Source of the DNA: Psilocybe cubensis
Lineage: Eukaryota
DNA length: 64,000 nucleotides
Direction of reading: 5' to 3'
Assembly (NCBI GenBank): GCA_017499595.2
Contig: CM039000.1
Coordinates: 3,968,001-4,032,000, forward strand
Part shown: positions 13,827-62,092 of the stretch, piece after piece
How the letters are laid out: the number at the start of each line of letters is the position of its first letter
How positions within the stretch are numbered: the stretch's first letter is position 1
Made by a program: the position numbers and the translations under genes
The notes under the pieces: model-generated
The model's input: the letters and a program-made list of their open reading frames with translations, nothing else
What the model was told of the DNA's origin: nothing
The model's database searches: none

Positions 13827-14760
13827 GGATGCAACAAAGGCAAAAGAGAAGGAACAGCGCAAGACCTGGTGATTCAGGCTCCGTGCTAAATTGAGTGGCA
13901 GAAGCATGTGATACCCTTGATTGAAAAATTCACTAAGTTGTTTTCCAGAGCAGGACATTTTGAATGAATTTTCGTCACATTCTCGGCTTCCAAAATCTGT
14001 CAAAATCTTGTAGAATGCAACGTTTTTACATTTTCGGCAGTCACATTTTCGGCACATTCCCAGATCTTTTCATAATCTCCCACAATTTGCGCCTTTCACA
14101 TTTTACAATTTTGTGCTGTGCACCCCAAGTATTCTGTGAACAACGGTTTACTTGAACTTATTCAGCTCGTTACAGAAACAGCTTACATTTAGCTTCCCGG
14201 AAATATTTCCAATATTTCGTAGTCTGCAACTTCTGCCACAAGAGCCAGTTATCTTATCAGCGTATTTGTAGCTGAAGTTTAATCGGGGTTGGGATTCAGA
14301 GTATTCAGATAGGATTCTCTTATCCAATCTGAGATAGCCAATAACAATAACCTCTTGCCATACACCATGTCAACCACTTCCGCCCCACCACCATACTACA
14401 AAACTATATACGATGAAACATTTCAATACGTGAGATATGAAGATCCCTCAATATCTAGCATGGGAAATCGGCCCAACCTCGCTGGGCAACTGGAATATCA
14501 TGCGCCGACGACTAATGGTTCATTTTCCATATGTTTAGCTGAAGGTATGGGTGTTTTTATTAGCAAGGTATGTCTCCATACTTCCAAAAGAGAACGGTTC
14601 ATATAACATTTCTTCATGAAAGGAACTACTGGATTCAATTCCGGCTGAACACAGACCTGCACTCGATACAACCCATGCTGGAGAGCCCGTCGGGACATTG
14701 TTTGGAGGCCCCAGCTTGAGATCCATTGGAACAACACTATTTCCTATTATTCTCAGGAAC

Positions 14761-16281
14761 GGGTAAACATCCGCGAGAGGATGTTCTCACGCACTAACCA
14801 CCACCATCAACATGGTCAGCGTGCCAGCTCACTGGCCCCCCTGCTGGGTACACGGCGACAGCGCTCTCCAGACTCAACCCCAGGCCCAACAGAGTCAGAG
14901 AGCGATGGCCGAAAGCTGCTACAGACCAAGAGGTCACCCCACACAAAGCACCTTATAAAGAAAGGCAGAACTCACCCCCGGAAATCAGTGGATGCCTCTC
15001 CGGATCCCTCTCCACAGCACTCTGTCAACACACCCATACCATTGGCGGACCCACACAGTGTCCCAAACACCAATGCTGCACCCCCATCCACTCTGCCCCC
15101 GCCAGCTGTGTCTTCGGACATTGTTGCCGGATAGGTTGCTCACCTCAAGACCCTGCTGGACTCCATTCTGGCAACGGTTGCGATTATACAGAGCATTTCT
15201 CACAGTACCATCACACTCAGTGACCGAACGATGCACGCCGCTCTGCTGCTACACTCAACCTTATTCCCGGCAGACCCGGAATATCATCCCCAAAACCCTG
15301 AAAGGATTACTAAGCCCTGTTCATACGCTACGGTGGCCAAAACTACACCAGTGGCTCAGCCAGCTCACACGCCGCAGAGGACATCCCCAGCCCCAACTGC
15401 TGGAGGCCCTATTAAGACCCGCCCTCACGTCACTCGTCCAACCCGCCATTATTCCTCAAATAATCGCCTTATTGCATCCTGGGATGACTTTCCACTTACA
15501 CAGCCATCTGGTCCACTCACTGATTTTGTGGAGCGACTCAATAGCAAGCTCTTGCCAATGTCACGGGACCCCCCTCATCATGTTCTCGGAGCTAATGTCT
15601 CAAAATCAGGAAGGCTCATTATCCACACCGCAAACGACACTGGAACTGCTAGAATAAAAGCTTGCCCGATGACCATTCTTCAAGCAGCTCAGGCCTCCGA
15701 TTGCTTTCCTAATTTTGATTCAACTATTGGTGACCCACCCACAGTTCATTCGGATGTGCCATGGCATAGTATAGTGGTCCATGATCTCCCAGCCAATTCA
15801 CTTCGTGACTCTTTTGACTCTGCCACTCCAAAAAACAGCATATGGTCATTACTTGAAAATGAGGCAGGGGTATCTAGGCAGGATATCCGAGGGCAAATAC
15901 GGGCTCTTTGTCGCGACGGGGAGGAGTTCCAGAAGGACCGACTTTCTATCCTCATTAGGTTTGAAGACAAGAATATCACAGAACGGCTCTATCACTCTGG
16001 CATTTTTCTCTTTGGCTCCTGGTGTCGAGTCTCTCGATATTGGGAGAGGAAGAGGAAACCTCAACCTTCAACTCCAACTCCAGCACCCCACGCAGAAAAC
16101 ACCACGCCGCAATAAATGTTCATAATCTCTCATAAGCAACACTTCTTATCCCTTTACATAGTACACATGGAACAGTAGGATTACAACCTATATAGAGAAA
16201 CTGTAATGGTAGTACTAAGCCAAGGGAGGGGCCCACCCCTCAGAGGCTATAACATAAAACAAAAAAAAAAAAAAAAAAAAA
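14761..16281 (+). mobile_element. Non-autonomous non-LTR retroposon, ORF1-only (HAL1-like), poly(A)-tailed, with 10-bp TSD
   Basis: TCTCAGGAAC at 14751-14760 and 16282-16291. A21 tail at 16261-16281. One long frame with LINE ORF1-like motifs; no RT or endonuclease. Confidence 0.88.
14781..16115 (+). pseudogene. LINE ORF1/gag-like protein (about 444 codons) with one in-frame TAG at 15132-15134
   Basis: ORFs 14781-15134 and 15231-16115 are in the same frame and open between them. Motifs SYATVA, VSKSGRLIIHT, PWHSIVVHDLP, SILIRFED, GIFLFGSWCRVSRY resemble fungal Tad1-type ORF1. No CCHC knuckle. Confidence 0.7.
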
Positions 16282-17039
16282 TCTCAGGAACACGGACACA
16301 AACAAAAAGTTTCGAATTGTTTTGCACGTCATAGTCCTTCCCAAACTACTCATTCCCATGTTTTTCGGCGCCAGCAGTGGTAATTTGATTCGAAGCCGCG
16401 CATACACACCAGAAGGCATATTTTTCGAATTCCAGTTTAACGATGAGATTGTCAGGGTCAAGGGATTCTCAGAGTTGAAGAAATGGACAACCTTGACGGA
16501 TTTGGTTGACCTTGAAACTTTGACATGGTATTAAGTGTAGCATCTCATTCTTTATCAGATATTTCCGTCAAGGTGGAACGTCAGCAACGAGTCATTGACC
16601 CCGTCTTACACAGTCAACGGCTCATTTACCAAGGTCCTTAAATTGACCTGTATTTCATGATGTAGTATATCGTCCATGATTTCCGCATGGCAACTGAAAT
16701 AACGATTCTTCAATCCTAGAGGTTGAATTGAAGTTATGCTCATCGTTGTACGCATGGAGACATTTTCCTCCCCTCCCCTTGTTGTCTATTCATATTCAAA
16801 ATGGCCTTATCCTGGACATGGTAAGCAAACCAGAATCTTGCTACTAAGTGGACGCTGCGGTATCAGTACAAATTACATTGTTAGATGAACTTATGACATG
16901 ACGTGCAAGGGTAGATTGTCCAGAAACCTCGGTAAACATACACATTATCTAAGGGACGCAGTTGGCGAGTCTGTCATCCAATTGTGATAATTAAAAATAA
17001 AAATAGGTGACGGAATATCATCCAGGAAGAATTAGTCGG

Positions 17040-17562: not shown

Positions 17563-17918
17563 ATATTTTTTTGCTGTAGTAGGTTTTTGGGAAAGCGAAA
17601 GGGAGTTTGGAAAAGTTTCAACCTTGATATTGAAGGCTATGTCTGTAGGAAATCGTCAGGAAATCAAAAAGGTTGCTTGGTTTCTTGATATAATAATTGA
17701 ATCTGAATTTGGCTTCACAACTGATTAGGTTTTATCACCCTTCATGTTTACCGTTTCTTTTCAAACTTGGATACAAGATCTATTTTTGTAGACCAACGTT
17801 AGTTCAGACGGACCTCTAATTGTTGAATCGGAGAATGTAAATGCATGTTATGAATATTCGCGACGTCGCGTGCAAGTCTCCATAATTAAACACTTGACCA
17901 CTAACAGGCAATACCGTC

Positions 17919-18531
17919 ATGTCCAAGACAAAACCCCAACGTCAAGCTCAAAACTCATCCAAGCAGTCTCATTATAACACCATCTATGATGAGACCTTTC
18001 GTTCTGTTCATTATGACAATCCCGCCATTGCCAGCATGGCTAATCATCCCAATTTAGTGGGAAAGTTGGAGCATCACGCCCCAACGACTGATGGGTCTTT
18101 TTCTATTTGCATCGCGAACGGTAGGGGAGTCTTCATCAGTCGGGTATGTTCCCAGGATATGCATCAACGTTGCCATAAGTTAATATATGCTGCAATCGCA
18201 TCAGGCTCTTCTCGAATCGATACCATCGGAACATCGTCCTACTCTCGACACCACCTTTGCAGGGCAGGAAGTTGAGAGTTTTGCTGGAGTCCTGCGATCG
18301 CTTGGTACAACGCTTTTCCCGCTAATCCTCAAAAACGCCAAAACAGGGGAGAGCTTCCGCGTCGTCCTACACGCCATAGTACTTCCAAAATTATACATTC
18401 ACATGTTCATTGGTGGCCAGGGCAGTCCCATTCTCCGAACAACCGCGTACACCAACGGAGTTCCAGTCCACGGGTTTTCCTTTGACGGAAGTGAGAACGC
18501 GAAAGATTTTACCATGGTGCAGGGAGTGTAA
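17919..18531 (+). CDS. Hypothetical protein, possible retropepsin-like fold lacking the catalytic Asp (intron 18144-18204)
   Basis: Two exons join in frame (...GVFISR|ALLESIP...). Strong similarity to the 14367 paralog, with the same intron position. Confidence 0.8.
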
Positions 18532-33378: not shown

Positions 33379-34570
33379 ATGATGGAAACACCCCGTTCAT
33401 ATACGATCGCTGTCCTTCCTGGAGATGGAATAGGCACTGAAGTCATGCCTCCAGCTCTACGGTGCTTAGAATCGGCTGCAAAAGTGTTTGGGTTCAAGTT
33501 GATATTTCAACACTATACATGGGCATCGTGCACCTACTATCTTCAGCACGGAAAAATGCTTCCAGACGATTGGAAAGAGCTGTTACAGGCATGCGATGCT
33601 ATATATTTTGGAGCAGGTATGCAGTACGAGTTTTCGATCGTTGTTGAGATGATATGACCATGCAATAGTCGGTGACCCTTCTACGGTGCCAGACCACATT
33701 TCATTGTGGGGAAGCTTGCTTTTGTTCAGACGGGAATTTGACCAGTATATCAACCTGAGACCATGTCGTCTTATTCCTGGAGTAAAATCCCCCTTAGCTA
33801 ATCGAGACAATAAGCCTATTGACTTTGTCACCGTTCGGGAGAACACCGAGGGCGAGTACAGCTCTATTGGAGGAAGGATCTTCGAGGGTACCGACCGTGA
33901 GACCGTCATCCAAAACACGGTGTTTACCAGGACCGGTGTGGACCGAGTCGTACGATACGCTTTTGAACTGGCACGCAGTAGGCCTGCTAAAAAGCTTACC
34001 TCTGCAACAAAATCAAATGGGATATCGATCACAATGCCTTACTGGGACGAGCGGGTCGAGGCAATAGGAAAGGAATACCCGGATGTTACGGTAGAGAAAT
34101 ATCATATTGACATCCTCTGTGCCCACTTCGTCCAGCGTCCTCATACCTTTGATGTCGTTGTTGGATCCAACCTTTTCGGAGATATTTTATCAGATCTTGG
34201 GCCTGCATGTACTGGAACCATCGGGATCGCACCCTCAGCAAACTTAAACCCCGCAGCCAAACGAGGAGATAAAAATTGGATGCCAAGTTTGTTCGAGCCC
34301 GTGCATGGAAGTGCCCCTGATATCGCAGGAAAAGGAATCGCCAACCCAATTGGCATGATCTGGGCAGGACAAATGATGCTCGAGCACCTCGGAGAGAAGG
34401 ATGCAGCCAATGCGGTAATGAGGGCAATTGAAGTAGTTCTCAGTGGAGCCAAGGAAGCGCAGCTCAGAGGAGAACAAGACGTCCTGACACCGGATATGCA
34501 TGGGAAGGGAACAACTGAAGGACTTGGGAGTGCCATTGAAAGAGAGATTCTCAAGTCAGCAAAGAACTAA
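33379..34570 (+). CDS. Tartrate dehydrogenase/decarboxylase (D-malate dehydrogenase), beta-decarboxylating dehydrogenase family; one intron near 33617-33668
   Basis: IAVLPGDGIGTEV, AIYFGA|VG.P..VPDHISLWGSLLLFRREFDQYINLRP, RENTEGEY, TKSNGISITMPYWD, NLFGDILSDLGPACTGTIGIAPSANLNP, FEPVHGSAPDIAGKGIANP. Confidence 0.92.
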
Positions 34571-34624: not shown

Positions 34625-35876
34625 TCATTTTGACTTTTGAACTGGAATGGGTTTCTCTGCCATGGCACAGAGACGGAATATATGTCTAGCAGCGGCACCA
34701 CTATCTTCGCTAACATAGTCGACGACAGCAGTGTCTACAGAAAAATACAAAATTTCGATCAGCTTCCACTCGACAGAATACAGTCCAAGCAGAAAATATT
34801 TACGGAGTGTACTGCGGTTATCAAATAGTACAATTGTTTTAGGCTTCCACTTGACTCTGGCTTGGAAATCATGACCAGTAATGATGTGCTGGAGAAGGAA
34901 GTCGAGGAGAACTTTCGCTTCCGCGTCCTTGAGTCCATGAATTCTTGTGATGAATTCTCCATTTACAAACAAGCATTTTTCACCTGTGACTGGGTGGATA
35001 CGAACAAGAGGGTGGACATTGTCAACAGGATCTTTCCGGACAAGTCCCCCCGCCCGTCGTGTATGAGCGATCATGTTACTCGAGGAGTGAGTGGCAAATA
35101 AACCATCCAAAAATGACCGTAAGACCGGAGAGATAAGCCTAGTTACATGAATGAGAATATATCAAGACAAATGGATTATTAACTTACTTGTATGCTGCCG
35201 CCGTATCCGCAAATACAGTATCACCGCCTACTTCCGGGCCCTGGAGTAAACCAAGCATTACATATCCAGGAGGCTGGCGCTCGTAGCTAACGTCTTGATG
35301 CCATAGCGTCGTTGTTGACTTCCTCTCTAAAAAGTTTGTGATCTCCTCCACATTTCCACTCCGGTGAATAATGTGGAAACCCGGAAATCCAGGTATCGTT
35401 CCCGAAACAGGCTGATAGTTTGGTTTTCCAAAATATTTCATGAATTCTTGTTGGAATGCGGGTCCGTCGTCGATCATATCCTGATCTGGAAATGCAACTA
35501 CCTTTCTTTGCGATATGAGCAATGCTAGCTCGTCTTTTCCGGCATCAGACAGCTTGTTCAGCTGCACCCCGTGGACTATACTACCGAATCCTGGTTGTAT
35601 GTGTGTAATCTGGGCCGACGGCGACAGAAGATTAGGCATAGACGGATTTTTGGCTCTTAGGGCAGGGTCGTGAAATTCGAAAGGCGGTAACGGATCGAAC
35701 CAGATAGGATCCCATGAAGGCATATACTGGGGATAGTTTGTGGTCCTGTTGGTTTCTTCAGTAAGCCCGATGTAAGGGACATTGATATCGTAGACAATGA
35801 AATCGTCTGTTCGAGATTCGTGGCCATCGTTCTCAATGGGTGGTTCGGATTCCGGAGACATATTGTTAGGAGGCAT
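34625..35876 (-). CDS. TauD/TfdA-family Fe(II)/2-oxoglutarate dioxygenase (sulfonate dioxygenase-like), 2 introns
   Basis: WHQDVSYERQPPG (HxD), GGDTVFAD, VHPLVRIHPVTGEKCLFVN, FDNRSTLH (His codon split by an intron), distal R in RHIFR. Confidence 0.92.
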
Positions 35877-36425
35877 AGTACAGCATGAGTGATGGAACAA
35901 CATTGAATTTATACTTTCAATTTTCTTTGCGCAGCTGGCTTGAGGTCAATATACGTGCGGTAATTTCATTATGATTTAGTTCTTCAAGGAGATAATCGTA
36001 TTATCGCTAGGTCGGCAAGCAGGCGTGTACTAACTGGAACCATACCAATATATTACAATCTCCTACCTGTGAATTTTCGCGTCCTGGAGAAGCCAAAAAA
36101 CAGATATCAATTCTGTTTATAGGCATTTGAAACACCGAGCTCTCCACATTTGAGCGCCTATCATTACATCACAGCACAAGAATCGATATCATACCTCAAA
36201 GCGTGACATATCTCACTAATCATCCTACATTACGTGAAGGAAATGGTTGACACGTTGTGTTGAAAAATCATCCTTTTGTTCCTTCATCAGAACCGGGAAC
36301 TTCCAGATGCCAAGCAGAGTAAGTGTCAAGTACCAAGTGTTCATTGTGACTGCTGACAGTATTTCACTATAAGAAATCGCTCTTCTTTGTTGCCAACCAC
36401 CACAGTTCTCATCCTCAATAACAAC

Positions 36426-37920: not shown

Positions 37921-40900
37921 ATGACCATCCCCTCCCTCACCGTCACCAACTTAAAGAAGGCAAAAAACGTCGTTATCGGGAATCCTCTGGCCAAAGTACA
38001 GCTTGTGAGAGACACCCATTTTATATCGACGTGAGTGGACTGGATGTTCATTTCTATGAATCTTACAGCTGTCTTCAGGCTCATTGACTGTTTGAATGCT
38101 CCATATTCTTCTGAGAAATCCACAAATGATGCTTTGCGGATCGAGGCAGCACATATAATCGCATCGTTATCATACGGTATGCAGCGAACTAAAGGAAGTG
38201 GTCTGTATTCATGATTGATATATTACAGGTTCTGAAGAAGCGCTTGGAACACTTTTGAGGGCCAACGCTCACCATGCCTTTGTCTATGCTATCTCATACT
38301 TCACACCATCCGAGCCTCTTTCTGTACGAGCAGCGTTTTCACGAGCTCTTCGAACGCTTGCAGCTTCAATCGCTGATGTCGTCGGACCGTCAATGTGGGG
38401 TTTAAGGCCAGACAGATCTATGATACGCAATGAAGCGCGGCATGCACTCGAATATCTTTTTCAGGTACGGTTCATGCTATTATCTATACGCATTCACTCT
38501 CACATACGCAGACCGAAACACTAGACATTTATCTACCATTGTTGCTCCCCCCCTCTCCTTCCATCCCCGCCGCGTACGCTGTCTCGACATCTATTGCACA
38601 GATGTTATCGACTACCATTCGCTCTGATGTGAATCGTCGTGCAGTGACAGAGTGGCTCCCTCCTGCCGAGCGACAGCGCGAGGTAAAGTCCCGCCGCGGG
38701 TGGGAAAAAACCGCTTTATCAGCGAGCCACACATCGCCATGGGTGGCAAGACAGCTTATAGCACTGCTTGGAGAGTACCGGCGAGAATACGACTGTAAGC
38801 TAGTAGAGGCCTGTTTGTCCGCGTTGGCCGCTCTTGCCAAAGAAAACCCAATTATAGCCACTTTTCTAACCAAACCTTTGGTTGGTGAGTAGTATTAACG
38901 ATTAGTGTGCTTATACTAATAATTTGTCCATAAAGACGCTCCTCCCCTTGAAACTATTCTAAAATTCACCAAATCCCGAACAGTGGATGTCCAGCTGGCT
39001 GCTTGTATATGTATCACCCATATTTTGCGAGCTCTTCCCCCCTCTCCCTCTTCAATTCCACCGCCGCATTCTATGACCTCTCCCACCTCCGCAACGACAT
39101 CCCACAGTCTTGCACACACTCCTGCTCCCCATAAACCATCTCTTGAAGAAGATTGTAAACGCACTGTGATCAACGTCGTCAATGGGATGATTTCCTCTCC
39201 ACCCTCAACCGACTCTCACAAAAGCCAGACGAAAGCCTGTTATATTTTGCGTGAGCTAAATTACACCCACCAATTATGGCTAATCTAATCAGCTCCTATC
39301 AGACCATTTGGTGTCAGATAATGATACCTTTTGTCATGACGCTTCTAAAAGAGGATGCCTTGACAACTTGGGCGAGTTAGTTCGTTCGATCAATCCTACA
39401 GAATCAGATCCAAATGAGTGGGAAGAAGGAGAGCCAGAGAGCTTGGCCGCCTTGCGAGAGGCTGCCCTTATAGCACTCGCATCATTGGCATTATCCTCGG
39501 ACGACATCCGGAGAAGAATAACGGACGAACTTAGTCTTCTGCCCTGCATATCGCGAGCTTTGCGTGCAAAGAGACACACGGGAACCCGCTACGCTGCATG
39601 CCAGTGTGTAAGAGCTATATCACGTGCGGTTTCGGTCCTGCGGACGAGTATAGTCGACAGCGGCCTCGGAATGGATGTACTGCGAATTGTACTTGGTCAA
39701 GACCTTGGGGATCGCTATGGAGGTAGTAGTTCAAACCCTGGAACCGTGGGGAACGCTACTGGTAAAGCTAAAGAAGGGGGGACAAAAAAATCCAAAGACG
39801 AAAGTTCGTCTATGGATACATCAGTTACAGGCACACGCGATGGATTGGGCGAAGATCGTCGAGTGCTCGGCGCTGCACTCTCTGCCGTTTGCAACATTGT
39901 CAACGACTTTTCCCCGCTGAGACCCGTATGTTATTTTCGTCTCACTGTTGTGCTATACTTATAATTTTCTGTTCAGATTTACCTGGAGGAGAAATTGATG
40001 CCACGCTTGGTTTACATTCTCAGAGAATCAGGCGATCCACCCCTCAGACTTAATGCCCTATGGGCTGTTAAAAATCTGGTGAAGAAAACTAGCACTGAAA
40101 CAAAGAGGGATATTATGAGCCATATCGGCTGGACACAGCTTTCCGAGTCAGTTGTACAATTGGATATAGTGTACTGTCCACACGGTACTAAATTTATTTT
40201 TTCCAGTTTCCTCAGCGACGCAGATGAAGATATACAGGAACAAGGTTTCTACACCCTTCGGAACCTTGCAGAAAATGAAGAGGGTATTGCCATGATCTTT
40301 AGAGAGCTCGGCCCTCAGGTCCTTGAGAAGATTGTCGCTGGACTGCGATCCTCTTGCACAGACGTTGTTCTCCAAGCTGCTTTCGCGATCGCCAATTTAG
40401 CAAACGGATCACACGATCAACAGGACATGATTCTTCGATTCCCTGGGATGCTCACCTCCCTACAATCATGCTTAGCAGAATCCACATCTGACATAAGACG
40501 TCCTGCCGTCTCTTGTATTTTGACCCTTGCACAGAGTAACCCAAGAAGGCGGAAAGAAATGATGGACGCTGGGATCATCAGCACTCTTAGACGGCTATGC
40601 GAATGGTCAGGCCATAGTACCCATGGACTCGGACATGGTCACAACCACCCTCCTGCCATCGGTGTCAGTCTTAGTCCAACTTCGGGAGGAGCTGGACATT
40701 GGGGTGGCCGCAGCCCACTAAGATCCCCGCCTAGTCATGCTCCAGTGCCAGTCACTGGCGTATATGGTAGCTGGGGTGGCAGCGGATCTATGCATCATCA
40801 TTCCCATTCACTGGCCCATCATGTCCCCGCCAGCGGACGAATTCAGCCCTACGGACATACCAGTCATCACAGCTGGTCATCTCCTATGGCACTCGAGGAC

Positions 40901-40972
40901 GATCGGGATGTCATTCAGAGGGCACGGACGGCTCTAGAATGGTTGGAACGCGGTGAGACGTACCTCACATGA
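37921..40972 (+). CDS. Armadillo-repeat protein ARMC8/Vid28 (GID complex subunit), multi-exon
   Basis: LKKAKNVVIGNPLAK, RIEAAHIIASLSYG, RYAACQCVRAISRAVSVLRTSIVD, VCNIVNDFSPLR, LRLNALWAVKNL, IQEQGFYTLRNLA. Confidence 0.85.
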
Positions 40973-59800: not shown

Positions 59801-61776
59801 GTTTAATCCTGGAGTCTCTCACAGTCGACAACCATTCCTTTACCATACTCAAGCCGGTTCCACACGATTCCAGGAGTGGCGTACAACTACCATTCTGTCA
59901 GAAGTTTTACGAAGACAATACGAAGAATTCTCGCACCTCTCCTTCAACAGCACTCCAATCTTTGCGTTCCATTCTTCTTCATTTGGATCCCAGAGCGTAG
60001 TGGCTTCCAGGTTCAGATACCGCTGACTTTCAAAAGTGCCCACAGCATGCTCTGGCCTCTTAGCTCTCGCCTTAGCAAGACTGAGTAACGATGAATGCAA
60101 CAAGGCGTGATGGTGATGAGTATGACTGTGTGAATGCGAGTGCGAATGCGAATGCGAATGTGAGTGGGCATGAAGATGAGAATGAGCAGATGCAGCATAA
60201 GAATGCGAGTGCTTGATAGTCGGTGAAACCAGAGCGTTAGACGAAGGCGAAGATATTGTTGGGTGGGTGTGAGATGATGGCAGCGGCTGGGATTTAATGC
60301 TCCTGCGCGACGTTGCGACAGGAGAAAGCGGTGCACCTAACGTGGTTAATCCATCATGGCTCGTCGTAACTTCCACAACGCCATCCCTATTGGTGTCTCT
60401 CTCCAAGGACGGCGCTCTGGTAGTCACTCGAGATAAACCAACGCGCGGCGTTCCAGGAACAGTAACAGGCGTTACCCCGCCTGTACCCGGGAACCTCTCT
60501 CTCGCTGGATCCACTAAAGAAAAGAAGACGCCCAGACCATCGGCGCGTCCGGCAAAGCGACGGAGCATTCCATGAAACGCTGTAAAGTCCGCAGGTGCGA
60601 ATCTGCCGTAGATAATATCGTTCGGAAGCAGCCTTCGCGCCGCGGCAAGCGGGACGAGCGATGCTTCCACTTTCTTTGTTTCGCCGCGCATGGCGGCCAG
60701 AAGCGGGGGAAATGTCGGCGAAGTCATTGGGGCGGCCTGTAACAGGGTGATGTGTGTGGATAGCATGGATATAGCAGGCGTTAGTGTATCTGATAAGAGC
60801 GTGGTAAATTGCGCTGAGATGGTGCATGGGAAGACGAGAACTGAAGCAAGGAGGGAGAGACCACTGTGAATGGCAAGAGGGACGACAATGGTTCGTCCGA
60901 TGAGGTAAAATGGGAAGGGAAAGAGCGCCCCTGTTGTTAAACATATATCTGGAGTAGAAACCAAATGAGTGATTTGTTTAATGGGGAGAAGGTGGACGTA
61001 CTTATACAGAGACATGCTAGAATGCAAGGGAAAACAAACGGCCCCGGGCCCTGCTTCGCTCTGAAGGCAAGGATTGTAGAGCATCCGATAAAGATAAATA
61101 CCCCGATAATAACAGACGGCCCAGCTTCGATATATTTTCCATCTGCAACATCGAAAATCGTGGCCGTTGGAACTTTAACAGTACGTGCAAGGTCTGCCAA
61201 AAAGAGTCCCAGGCATGACCACCTATCGTTGCAACAAAATGAGTGCCTTTGTACCTCTGAAGATATCGGACTTACGCCCATGTGAGGCACACAAAGACGA
61301 GAATGAGGATCTCGCGTTCGAGAACGGACAAAAATGGATCTGATGGTGGGGAGAGCACCACCCCTGATATGCAACGTTTCGATCATTTTGCATTGTACAA
61401 CAGAAAGCGTGAGCGTACCAATGAGAATAAGAAAGCTCGCTTGGCCAAGAACCAGCTCAACGGCTGGAATGACAAACAATACGAGGGACAACCATGCTAC
61501 GAGGGCACATCGGATCACAGGTTTGAGCTTGCTCCATGCCGTATTTTGGAAAACCCATGCAAGATGGGTTCTTAGGTATGTTGAGACGAATTTGATCCAG
61601 GGATGTAAAGGTTTTGTCGGCGGAAGATTGCTATTTGACGAGGAGGATGATGATGAAGATGATGTAGAATAGGGTCTATCGCTGTCGACAGGTTTTGGCT
61701 CGTTGTTGAACCCGGACTCCCTTTCGCGTCTTCCTCTAACTGGTTCGGCATTATCTGCCTTCGACGAGGCATCCAT
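56809..61776 (-). CDS. Large membrane protein, ArAE_2/BRE4/FUSC-like putative transporter, multi-exon
   Basis: WSKLKPVIRCALVAWLSLVLFVIP...LGQASFLILI, RRRDPDALPPRN, FGIKAGLLSVALSLP, GQLTIARFRGDTIFG, LRTGNPLPQITP, DRLMIAVKEIVGEQY. Confidence 0.82.
60110..60188 (-). repeat. His/Ser-coding hexanucleotide repeat within the transporter gene
   Basis: (tgcgaa)n on the + strand encodes HSHLHAHSHSHSHSHSHSHTHHHH on the - strand. Confidence 0.7.
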
Positions 61777-62092
61777 GAAGCCTAGCTGGCAAAAGATAAA
61801 GAGGGAAACGGAAGTCGAACATTTGTCGCATGACAAAAATAAAAGACTGACATCATGACAACCCTATGGGAGATGATTTTCAAATTCACGCTTTTTTTTT
61901 CACACAGCGTGACCTCTAATGTCACCGTGTGTCGCCGAGATTACAAAGGGATCCCGGTTAGGAATTAGGAGGACTACTTATGGCAACAGGAATTAGGTGA
62001 ATGTGAGGACTAAACAGATGCATTCCATAGTCAATATTTAGGTACATGTTGTTGATATACTATTTTAGCGTTGTCCGAATGGACATACAGTG

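Follow-up and report, generated by a model that had tools for sequence, protein, structure and literature searches.

The analysed window is a 64,000-nt stretch of the Psilocybe cubensis genome (assembly GCA_017499595.2, contig CM039000.1, positions 3,968,001 to 4,032,000 of the forward strand), and positions are counted from its first letter. A host exon in the window is interrupted by a 1521-bp insert (14761–16281), which has the signature of a retroposon of the non-LTR (non-long-terminal-repeat) type. The insert begins with GGG, ends with 21 A residues and is bounded by two perfect copies of a 10-bp repeat. It contains one long reading frame, from an ATG at 14781 to a stop codon at 16113–16115, followed by a 3' untranslated region (3' UTR). 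The insert has a G+C content of 50.5%, compared with 43.3% in the flanks. Its terminal A run is one of only two A/T runs of at least 10 nt in the window. The repeats, the ends of the insert, its A run and its frame can be read directly at 14751–16291 and agree with a previous sequence-only reading of the locus, which had described the 1521-bp insert, its target-site duplication, the A21 run and a 3' UTR of about 145 nt. Self-searches with blastn and tblastn reveal no second copy within the 64 kb. The features are listed in Table 1.

Table 1. Features of the insertion and of its host gene, in window coordinates. ORF, open reading frame; RRM, RNA-recognition motif; MFE, minimum free energy
Feature	Position	Strand	Remarks
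Host exon before insertion	14626..14760	+	joined to 16292-16534 gives an open frame
Target-site duplication, upstream	14751..14760	n/a	TCTCAGGAAC; identical to 16282-16291; single copy retained in X5 empty-site contig
Extra 5' nucleotides, G-initial	14761..14780	+	20 nt, absent from other copies
Conserved 5'-terminal element	14781..14825	+	starts at ATG; candidate internal promoter or 5' RNA signal
Single ORF, ORF1p-like	14781..16115	+	444 codons + stop; interrupted in window copy
Predicted helices, possible multimerisation segment	15114..15263	+	codons 112-139, 148-161; AlphaFold2 model
Private in-frame TAG	15132..15134	+	codon 118; C in reads/contigs of other copies
RRM-like domain 1	15453..15755	+	codons 225-325; predicted fold
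RRM-like domain 2	15756..16055	+	codons 326-425; predicted fold
3' UTR	16116..16260	+	145 nt
Family-wide conserved 3' tail module	16187..16267	+	covariance model R1
G+C-rich hairpin	16226..16241	+	6 bp, 4-nt loop; ~20 nt before poly(A); present in MFE fold
Poly(A) tail	16261..16281	+	21 A
Target-site duplication, downstream	16282..16291	n/a	direct reading
Host exon after insertion, to host stop codon	16292..16534	+	colinear with paralogue
Uninterrupted tandem paralogue of host gene	17898..18528	+	58% identity across insertion point; ~3.5 kb downstream

The host frame was proposed to be restored by removal of the insert, and this is borne out. When the insert and one repeat copy are cut out in a script, the host exon is open. 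The restored exon is colinear, without a break at the junction, with a tandem paralogue at about 18.2 kb (49 of 84 positions identical; E 3e-29). No Pfam family is found in the host exon or in the paralogue. An empty site is present in another strain, as the check suggested in the earlier reading called for. A 2638-nt contig of sequencing run X5 aligns on 14300–14760 and on 16310–16721, with 18 letters between the two blocks. The site was judged by length, the letters of these 18 nt not being displayed. Since 18 nt is the exact length of the masked segment 16292–16309, the contig joins 14760 to 16292 and represents an empty site with one repeat copy. The insertion is real, recent, polymorphic and gene-disrupting.

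The earlier reading placed the 444-codon frame correctly but overlooked that it is not open in this copy: an in-frame TAG breaks it at codon 118. Position 15132 is C, forming a CAG codon, in all 243 raw reads of run X13 (124 + 119) and in all contigs of runs X5, X8 and X10. The intact relatives of the protein likewise have Q at codon 118. Since every X13 read carries C, the TAG is private to the window copy, and this copy is probably absent from X13. The part behind the TAG is 95% identical to an intact 444-residue protein of P. cubensis. Public annotation splits the disrupted locus (14364–15134 and 15234–16115) into two 'hypothetical proteins'. The first is a 226-residue fusion of host exon 1 with element codons 1–117 and ends at the private TAG, and the second, of 294 residues, starts at Met152 of the element.

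The insert is one of many copies in P. cubensis. In X13, raw-read depth is about 265x over the insert and about 25x over the flanks (reads at 90% likeness or more), which corresponds to roughly ten copies per haploid genome. The reads of other copies depart at 14778–14780 (56, 42 and 46 reads) into continuations of low agreement, as fits many different insertion sites. In addition, the 90%-identity cluster of the intact 444-residue protein consists of eight P. cubensis gene models, two of which are fused to a DUF6533 host protein. Gene models of the element protein lie on at least five distinct contigs of 2.6–4.2 Mb. The depth and the gene models exclude a lone processed retrocopy, an outcome that the earlier reading had kept in view. 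A related explanation is that all copies are ordinary processed retrocopies of a cellular RRM-protein gene, occasionally produced by the machinery of a long interspersed nuclear element (LINE) and devoid of element-specific signals. Poly(A) and target duplications are also typical of processed pseudogenes, and the predicted folds of the protein are of a cellular RRM type, with no known transposon domain. The presence of about ten near-identical copies per haploid genome speaks against this explanation, as do the termini described below.

The window copy differs from the X13 copies at 132 transition and 12 transversion places between 14781 and 16260. Thirteen of its 16 near-fixed private differences are T or A where the other copies have C or G, and of these 13, six lie at CpG and four at CpA/TpG. 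Together, these differences suggest cytosine deamination of the repeat by methylation or by a process like repeat-induced point mutation. Some X13 reads match the insert only to 15619 (21 reads) or 15754 (17 reads) and then continue into unrelated sequence, indicating that some X13 copies are truncated, rearranged or interrupted. In run X10, whose RNA nature is a guess, a single contig of 2804 nt covers 14795–16245 at a depth of 128, with zero depth on the host flanks, and extends 1346 nt past the 5' side of the element. A read-through transcript of another copy, or a chimeric one, may underlie this contig, and X10 is not counted as proof of expression.

Relatives of the protein are widespread in mushroom-forming fungi. 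A phmmer search of the full library returns 102 cluster representatives at E ≤ 1e-3, most of them 320–450 residues long. The named members, all annotated as 'hypothetical', come from Psilocybe cyanescens, Cyclocybe aegerita, Flammula alnicola (at least four loci), Pholiota molesta, several Mycena species, Armillaria borealis and Schizopora paradoxa, the last of these in the Hymenochaetales. The 15 matches of a profile search at near lengths are 'hypothetical' as well. In three of four longer representatives (P0079, P0083 and P0095), the family region is preceded on its N-terminal side by a host domain unrelated to it, the domains being NmrA-like (or thioester reductase), F-box and NB-ARC-like. 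P0021 (885 residues) has no Pfam match, and no reverse transcriptase (RT) is found in the longer representatives. In P0007, P0011, P0079, P0083 and P0095, which come from several species, gene annotation makes the family ORF the C-terminal portion of a host protein, DUF6533 proteins being among these. Such host-domain fusions are likely further insertions that have been merged into host gene models.

The genomic plan of the family was examined by scanning metagenome contigs with an alignment of close members, which yielded 34 loci at 29–47% protein identity. The 25 loci with more than 180 nt after the ORF stop are informative. In 22 of them, one ORF is followed by a 3' UTR of 145–410 nt, a conserved tail module and poly(A), two of these being cut by contig ends. 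The remaining three, all of one subfamily, reach the contig end 183–252 nt after the stop. Past the ORF, every frame of L010 and L023 contains stops, and the third locus, L009, keeps one frame open over 183 nt. A second ORF (ORF2) behind the family ORF is absent from all 25 loci, with L009 open over its 183 nt to the contig end. Eight metagenome loci have target duplications of their own, of 9–13 bp, and A runs of 9–36 are found in 16 related loci. Twenty other long ORFs in the metagenome loci include no LINE-type RT or endonuclease; two are Copia RVT_2 proteins and the rest are host genes. The family ORF contains no RT, endonuclease or CCHC motif either, in accordance with the earlier reading, and zf-CCHC matches none of 45 family members. 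The single ORF, the lack of ORF2 and the multi-copy nature together support the proposed resemblance to half-L1 (HAL1) elements, which encode only ORF1, and the recurrence of the same plan in 22 of 25 loci, eight of the loci with their own duplications, excludes a one-off deletion of a LINE.

The ORF-only plan could still have arisen as in mammals, where HAL1s were born several times from L1 (PMC5753468). The insert would then be a recent internal-deletion derivative, confined to one species, of a resident autonomous LINE with the same ORF1. The sharing of the 3' tail with other repeats of the same species, described below, would fit such an origin. Several observations oppose it. The plan is found in several diverged subfamilies, none with ORF2. 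X13 depth is roughly even along the insert at the likeness threshold given above, and among the loose ends listed, none lies just behind the ORF stop, the place at which a parent LINE would continue into ORF2. A profile search over proteins of 836–2385 residues also found no fused, longer form, which is weak evidence. We regard a recent, species-confined birth as quite improbable.

The 5' end of the element coincides with its start codon. The sequence common to 22 copies has the ATG as its exact starting point (ATGTTCTCACG....AACCACCACCAT), and the upstream flanks are unrelated to each other. Among 16 copies, mean pairwise nucleotide identity rises from 0.24–0.29 at −30 to −1 to 0.83–0.88 at +1 to +30, then falls to 0.63 at +31 to +45 and is mostly far lower beyond. 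The number of bases between the upstream repeat and the ATG is 0–6 in seven full-length loci, often G-rich, versus 20 in the window copy. L018, the eighth locus with a duplication, is 5'-truncated. The sequence 14761–14780 is unique in the window, with no chance match in 100 shuffles. The comparison of 0–6 with 20 variable bases indicates that 14761–14780 is junction filler outside the element. Thus, of the 20-nt leader starting with GGG in the earlier reading, the GGG start stands, but the segment is not a leader of the element: other P. cubensis copies diverge at 14778–14780, and the similarity among 21 related loci starts only at the ATG.

In one subfamily (L014:1250, L015:25, L019:9686, L020:638 and L021:9677), an extra G directly after the ATG changes the reading to MVLTVEPP... 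instead of MFSRSNHHH..., and the family frame is regained later. The first 30 or so nucleotides are kept despite the different frame, which points to a constraint on the nucleic acid rather than on the protein. Either an internal promoter or a signal in the 5' part of the RNA may thus lie in the conserved first nucleotides. The termini also bear on the explanation by ordinary retrocopies of a cellular gene. Identical 5' and 3' ends are found in 22 copies from different fungi at 29–47% protein identity, the 5' terminus is retained at the nucleotide level even where the frame differs, and no intron-bearing version exists among the 34 metagenome loci. An mRNA with essentially no 5' UTR would, moreover, be odd for a cellular gene. 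Ordinary retrocopies are very improbable in our judgement. As an identity for the insert, the processed pseudogene was rejected on the conserved termini of 22 copies and the multi-copy state, a genome-wide search for a parent gene being outside the scope.

The base preceding the upstream repeat is A in eight of nine elements (the window copy, L012, L014, L017–L021 and L028), and in five it is part of TAA. An A at this position fits priming of a poly(A) RNA on a T-rich nick and suggests that A/T-rich sites may be preferred for nicking. As scored, the duplications may fall 1–2 A short of their true length.

The 3' end carries a conserved module as well. Because 3- and 4-nt loops shift the stems, RNAalifold recovers only three pairs from a plain MAFFT alignment of the tails, and the tails were re-aligned with a covariance model before the hairpin statistics were calculated. 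The model, R1, scores 65.3 bits on the window tail (E 6.5e-10). In the 250,308 nt of the window and the loci combined it has 23 matches, all of them immediately following a family ORF. Between the hairpin and the poly(A), an AATAAA-type box is followed by about 8–15 nt. Across 22 distinct tails, 79% of the cells of the hairpin are paired, and three of five pairs have changed on both sides; these values are equalled by 2 of 500 shuffles for pairing and by 6 of 500 for covariation. The window 3' UTR folds with an MFE of −33.4 kcal/mol (z −1.88), and 9 of 200 shuffles fold as well. A strict IUPAC tail pattern matched one locus only, and 14700–16350 has no Rfam match at E ≤ 1. In runs X5, X8, X10 and X13, four or more different sequences lead into the last 37 nt or so before the poly(A), showing that this tail is shared with other repeats of the same species. 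Either the LINE partner or sister subfamilies that have diverged could account for these repeats.

An AlphaFold2 model built on 45 sequences divides the protein into several regions. Residues 1–110 are disordered and basic. Two helices (112–139 and 148–161) with 10-residue block means of about 79–88 in the predicted local distance difference test (pLDDT) contain the most conserved N-terminal motif of the family and form a possible multimerising segment. A low-confidence linker with a conserved S-Y-A motif leads to two α/β domains, 225–325 and 326–425, whose pLDDT block means are mostly 90–96. The top Foldseek matches are all tandem-RRM proteins, with IMP3 RRM12 first (E 3e-6), followed by UP1, U2AF65 and HuR. 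A VIA structure comparison, independent of Foldseek, gives U2AF65 RRM1 as the best match of domain 1 (Z 8.7, root mean square deviation (rmsd) 2.9, 80 aligned) and many single RRMs at Z of about 7–7.5 for domain 2 (residues 326–424). The predicted build, a disordered N-terminus, helices and two RRMs, resembles that of an ORF1 protein (ORF1p). The intact 444-residue copy has only three cysteines, which are too widely separated to form a CCHC knuckle.

Pfam searches with the ORF, 34 relatives and 45 members give no match above threshold and no recurrent weak family. The nearest named clusters in the ESM Atlas are arthropod DUF4780 (0.89, 0.89 and 0.87) and PRE_C2HC (0.84), all below 0.9 and to be taken as leads only. 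Both domains are known from ORF1 or gag-like proteins of insect retrotransposons.

Conceivably, the element is a non-autonomous retroposon that works like a half-LINE but has a different origin, its protein having been taken over from an RRM gene of the host and not from the ORF1 of a LINE. No ORF1p family is detectably homologous to it, the best fold matches are cellular RRMs, and the protein lacks both the CCHC motif of type I and the L1-type C-terminal domain (CTD) of type II, the features given as defining in the ORF1p scheme of PMC4120745. Yet a disordered basic N-terminus, helices and RRMs are the build described for ORF1ps (PMC3905857), and ORF1 proteins evolve fast according to the account in PMC4641428. 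The nearest language-model clusters, as leads, also point away from a host origin. Capture of a host gene is unlikely, though of the alternatives weighed it is the one to which we assign the most credence.

The ORF has evolved under purifying selection. Ratios of nonsynonymous to synonymous substitution rates (dN/dS) between open copies are 0.17–0.31 in 10 of the 11 computed pairs and 0.53 in the other, with one further pair saturated and one skipped. Twenty-one metagenome loci begin with the family ATG: 11 are open over at least 400 codons, seven are interrupted and three run off the contig. Selection on the ORF implies that the protein is needed along the lineages that yield new copies, and such a need is what a cis-acting ORF1p would predict. 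Selection could instead reflect a host function, if this were a domesticated or host-serving gene family that spreads by retroposition. A dN/dS of about 0.3 and the many open ORFs would be compatible with this, and retroelement ORF1 genes have been co-opted elsewhere, as described for the EKA effectors (PMC4641428) and L1TD1 (PMC4161310). Against a host role, a gene is destroyed by the window insertion, which is itself polymorphic, other copies form fusions with host genes of unrelated kinds (DUF6533, NmrA-like and F-box), seven of the 18 fully covered copies are broken, leaving 11 of 18 open, and the conserved terminal cis elements point to selection for mobility. Domestication is therefore highly improbable.

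The observation is real, and the earlier reading of the insert is correct in essence. The insert is, in our view, likely to be a prematurely stopped copy of a multi-copy, non-autonomous poly(A) retroposon family of the non-LTR type, an ORF1p-like half-LINE mobilised in trans. The same joint claim, held with equal confidence, includes the description of the family: its members would be about 1.5–1.7 kb long, wide in mushroom-forming fungi, and equipped with a single ORF1p-like RNA-binding protein and no RT or endonuclease.

A possible life cycle can be outlined. RNA polymerase II (Pol II) would transcribe the element from an internal promoter in its first 30–45 bp, which would place the RNA start on the AUG or no more than a few bases from it. 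The transcript would be polyadenylated behind the AATAAA-like box. The protein, with its disordered N-terminus, helical segment and two RRMs, would coat its own RNA in cis. The resulting ribonucleoprotein would borrow the endonuclease and RT of an autonomous LINE, which might recognise the 3' hairpin tail, the poly(A), or both. Target-primed reverse transcription at an A/T-rich nick would then produce the 9–13-bp duplication, and a few untemplated, G-rich bases would often be added at the 5' junction. In this scheme, we infer the RNA binding, the promoter function and the hairpin recognition of the family, together with the supply of RT in trans by a LINE and the descent of the family ORF from a LINE ORF1. 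What the data show directly is the anatomy, the empty site and the copy number, the constancy of the family plan and of both ends, the purifying selection acting on the ORF and the predicted tandem-RRM fold.

We are evenly divided on a more far-reaching view of the family as an old, still active lineage of protein-coding half-LINEs that extends from Agaricales to Hymenochaetales. Its members would be hyperparasites of LINEs that have long diversified, never had an ORF2 of their own and keep only a tandem-RRM coat protein. Their RNA would start at its own start codon, the first 30 or so coding nucleotides would hold the promoter or 5' signal, and the 3' hairpin would be the handle for the borrowed RT.

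Several points weigh against the interpretation as a trans-mobilised half-LINE. First, the central domain of human L1 ORF1p (2w7a_B) ranks only 47th in the structure comparison (Z 6.4, rmsd 3.4, 86 aligned), below many cellular RRMs with Z of 7–8.7, so the fold does not single out a LINE ancestry, nor does it exclude one. Second, Transposase_22 (PF02994), RRM_1, PRE_C2HC and zf-CCHC match none of the 45 members at E ≤ 1, and the best hit of a profile search of PDB sequences is an unrelated photosystem subunit (E 0.039). Third, no autonomous partner is found in about 250 kb, where all 23 tail matches stand behind family ORFs, and divergence of subfamilies could be enough to explain the repeats with the same last 37 nt. 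Fourth, the covariation of the hairpin is modest and the z value of the 3' UTR fold is only −1.88; this support is real but modest. Finally, an RNA that starts at its own AUG is awkward for cap-dependent translation and ordinary scanning.

The closest parallel in plan is the mammalian HAL1, a non-autonomous element that encodes only ORF1p, arose several times and depends on a LINE for RT and endonuclease, as described in PMC5753468. The fungal family resembles HAL1 in having an ORF1p-type gene only, multiple copies, poly(A) and a target duplication. However, the two differ in several respects. The ORF1 of HAL1 is demonstrably an L1 ORF1, whereas the fungal family is likened to it by plan, and the sequence searches returned no ORF1p. 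HAL1s arose repeatedly and briefly, whereas the fungal plan persists across subfamilies with 29–47% protein identity and across fungal orders. The fungal protein has two RRMs and no L1-type CTD, and the fungal element starts at its own ATG.

The nearest report found in agarics concerns MarorLINE-6 of Marasmius oreades. This element, assigned to the Inkcap group, is described in PMC9674265 as producing new insertions while having no RT and 'no protein domains', and its authors suggest that it uses the RT of the related MarorLINE-5. By description, it is like the present family an agaric non-LTR element that inserts anew without an RT. It differs in that its sequence is said to resemble that of an RT-bearing LINE and in that it is presented as a single-copy element with 5'-truncated insertions, and an ORF1-only coding plan is not part of the account given there. 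In the full-text literature, no description of an ORF1-only family in fungi was found apart from this remark on MarorLINE-6; Repbase and supplements lay outside the scope of that search.

The general ORF1p build comprises one or two RRMs and a coiled coil or multimerising helix (PMC3905857). The RRM domains, the helical, possibly multimerising region and the disordered N-terminus of the fungal protein are shared with type I and type II ORF1ps as characterised in PMC4120745 and PMC3905857. Type I (Jockey/I/Tad1-like) has at least one RRM, to which the two predicted RRM folds correspond, but is described as having a CCHC motif directly after it, and this is missing from the fungal protein. Type II (L1-like) is described as requiring the L1 RRM plus the CTD (Transposase_22), which, as noted above, none of the members matches. 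In the published scheme, as outlined in PMC4120745, the fungal protein would be assigned to 'type V, unclassified'.

Another fungal comparison is provided by the EKA/AVRk1-AVRa10 genes of Blumeria graminis, which are described as many-copy genes derived from LINE ORF1 (PMC4641428). Fungal host, LINE-ORF1 derivation and high copy number are the features of EKA that invite the comparison. According to the same source, EKA genes differ in being truncated ORF1 pieces of I-superfamily LINEs with a zinc-finger-like domain, and have been interpreted as effectors that arose by co-option; they are not seen as an ORF1-only element that propagates itself and has ends of its own.

Short interspersed nuclear elements (SINEs) are likewise non-autonomous and have a conserved 3' stem-loop tail that is presumably read by the RT of a partner. 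They differ in being short and non-coding, in being transcribed by RNA polymerase III and in carrying a small-RNA head (tRNA, 7SL or 5S), whereas the insert has no Rfam match, a 444-codon ORF under purifying selection and an AATAAA-type box. A SINE identity was rejected on the basis of the coding ORF and the lack of an Rfam match.

To our knowledge, ORF1-only non-LTR elements are documented mainly as mammalian HAL1s, short-lived offshoots of L1. If the present interpretation is true, an ORF1-only element can be a stable, long-lived strategy in fungi, with conserved ends of its own, a protein under purifying selection and current activity. What is added to the earlier reading is the step from a single insert to a widespread, conserved and active ORF1-only family in mushrooms. 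The family would offer a compact 1.5-kb system for asking what ORF1p-type proteins contribute in cis. It would also be useful for asking how a LINE RT picks its template, by hairpin tail or by poly(A), and how an RNA that starts at the AUG is transcribed and translated. Agaric gene sets, in which copies are annotated as 'hypothetical proteins' or fused to host genes, would become cleaner once the family is recognised, and strain-polymorphic insertions could be used as markers.

The DNA around the insert is ordinary and gene-rich. The 12 longest other ORFs of the window contain no RT, and no other transposon is seen among them. Genes at 33653–34567, 35187–35945, 39965–40969 and 59852–61863 encode an isocitrate/isopropylmalate dehydrogenase, a TauD-type dioxygenase, an armadillo/HEAT-repeat protein and an ArAE_2_N transporter.

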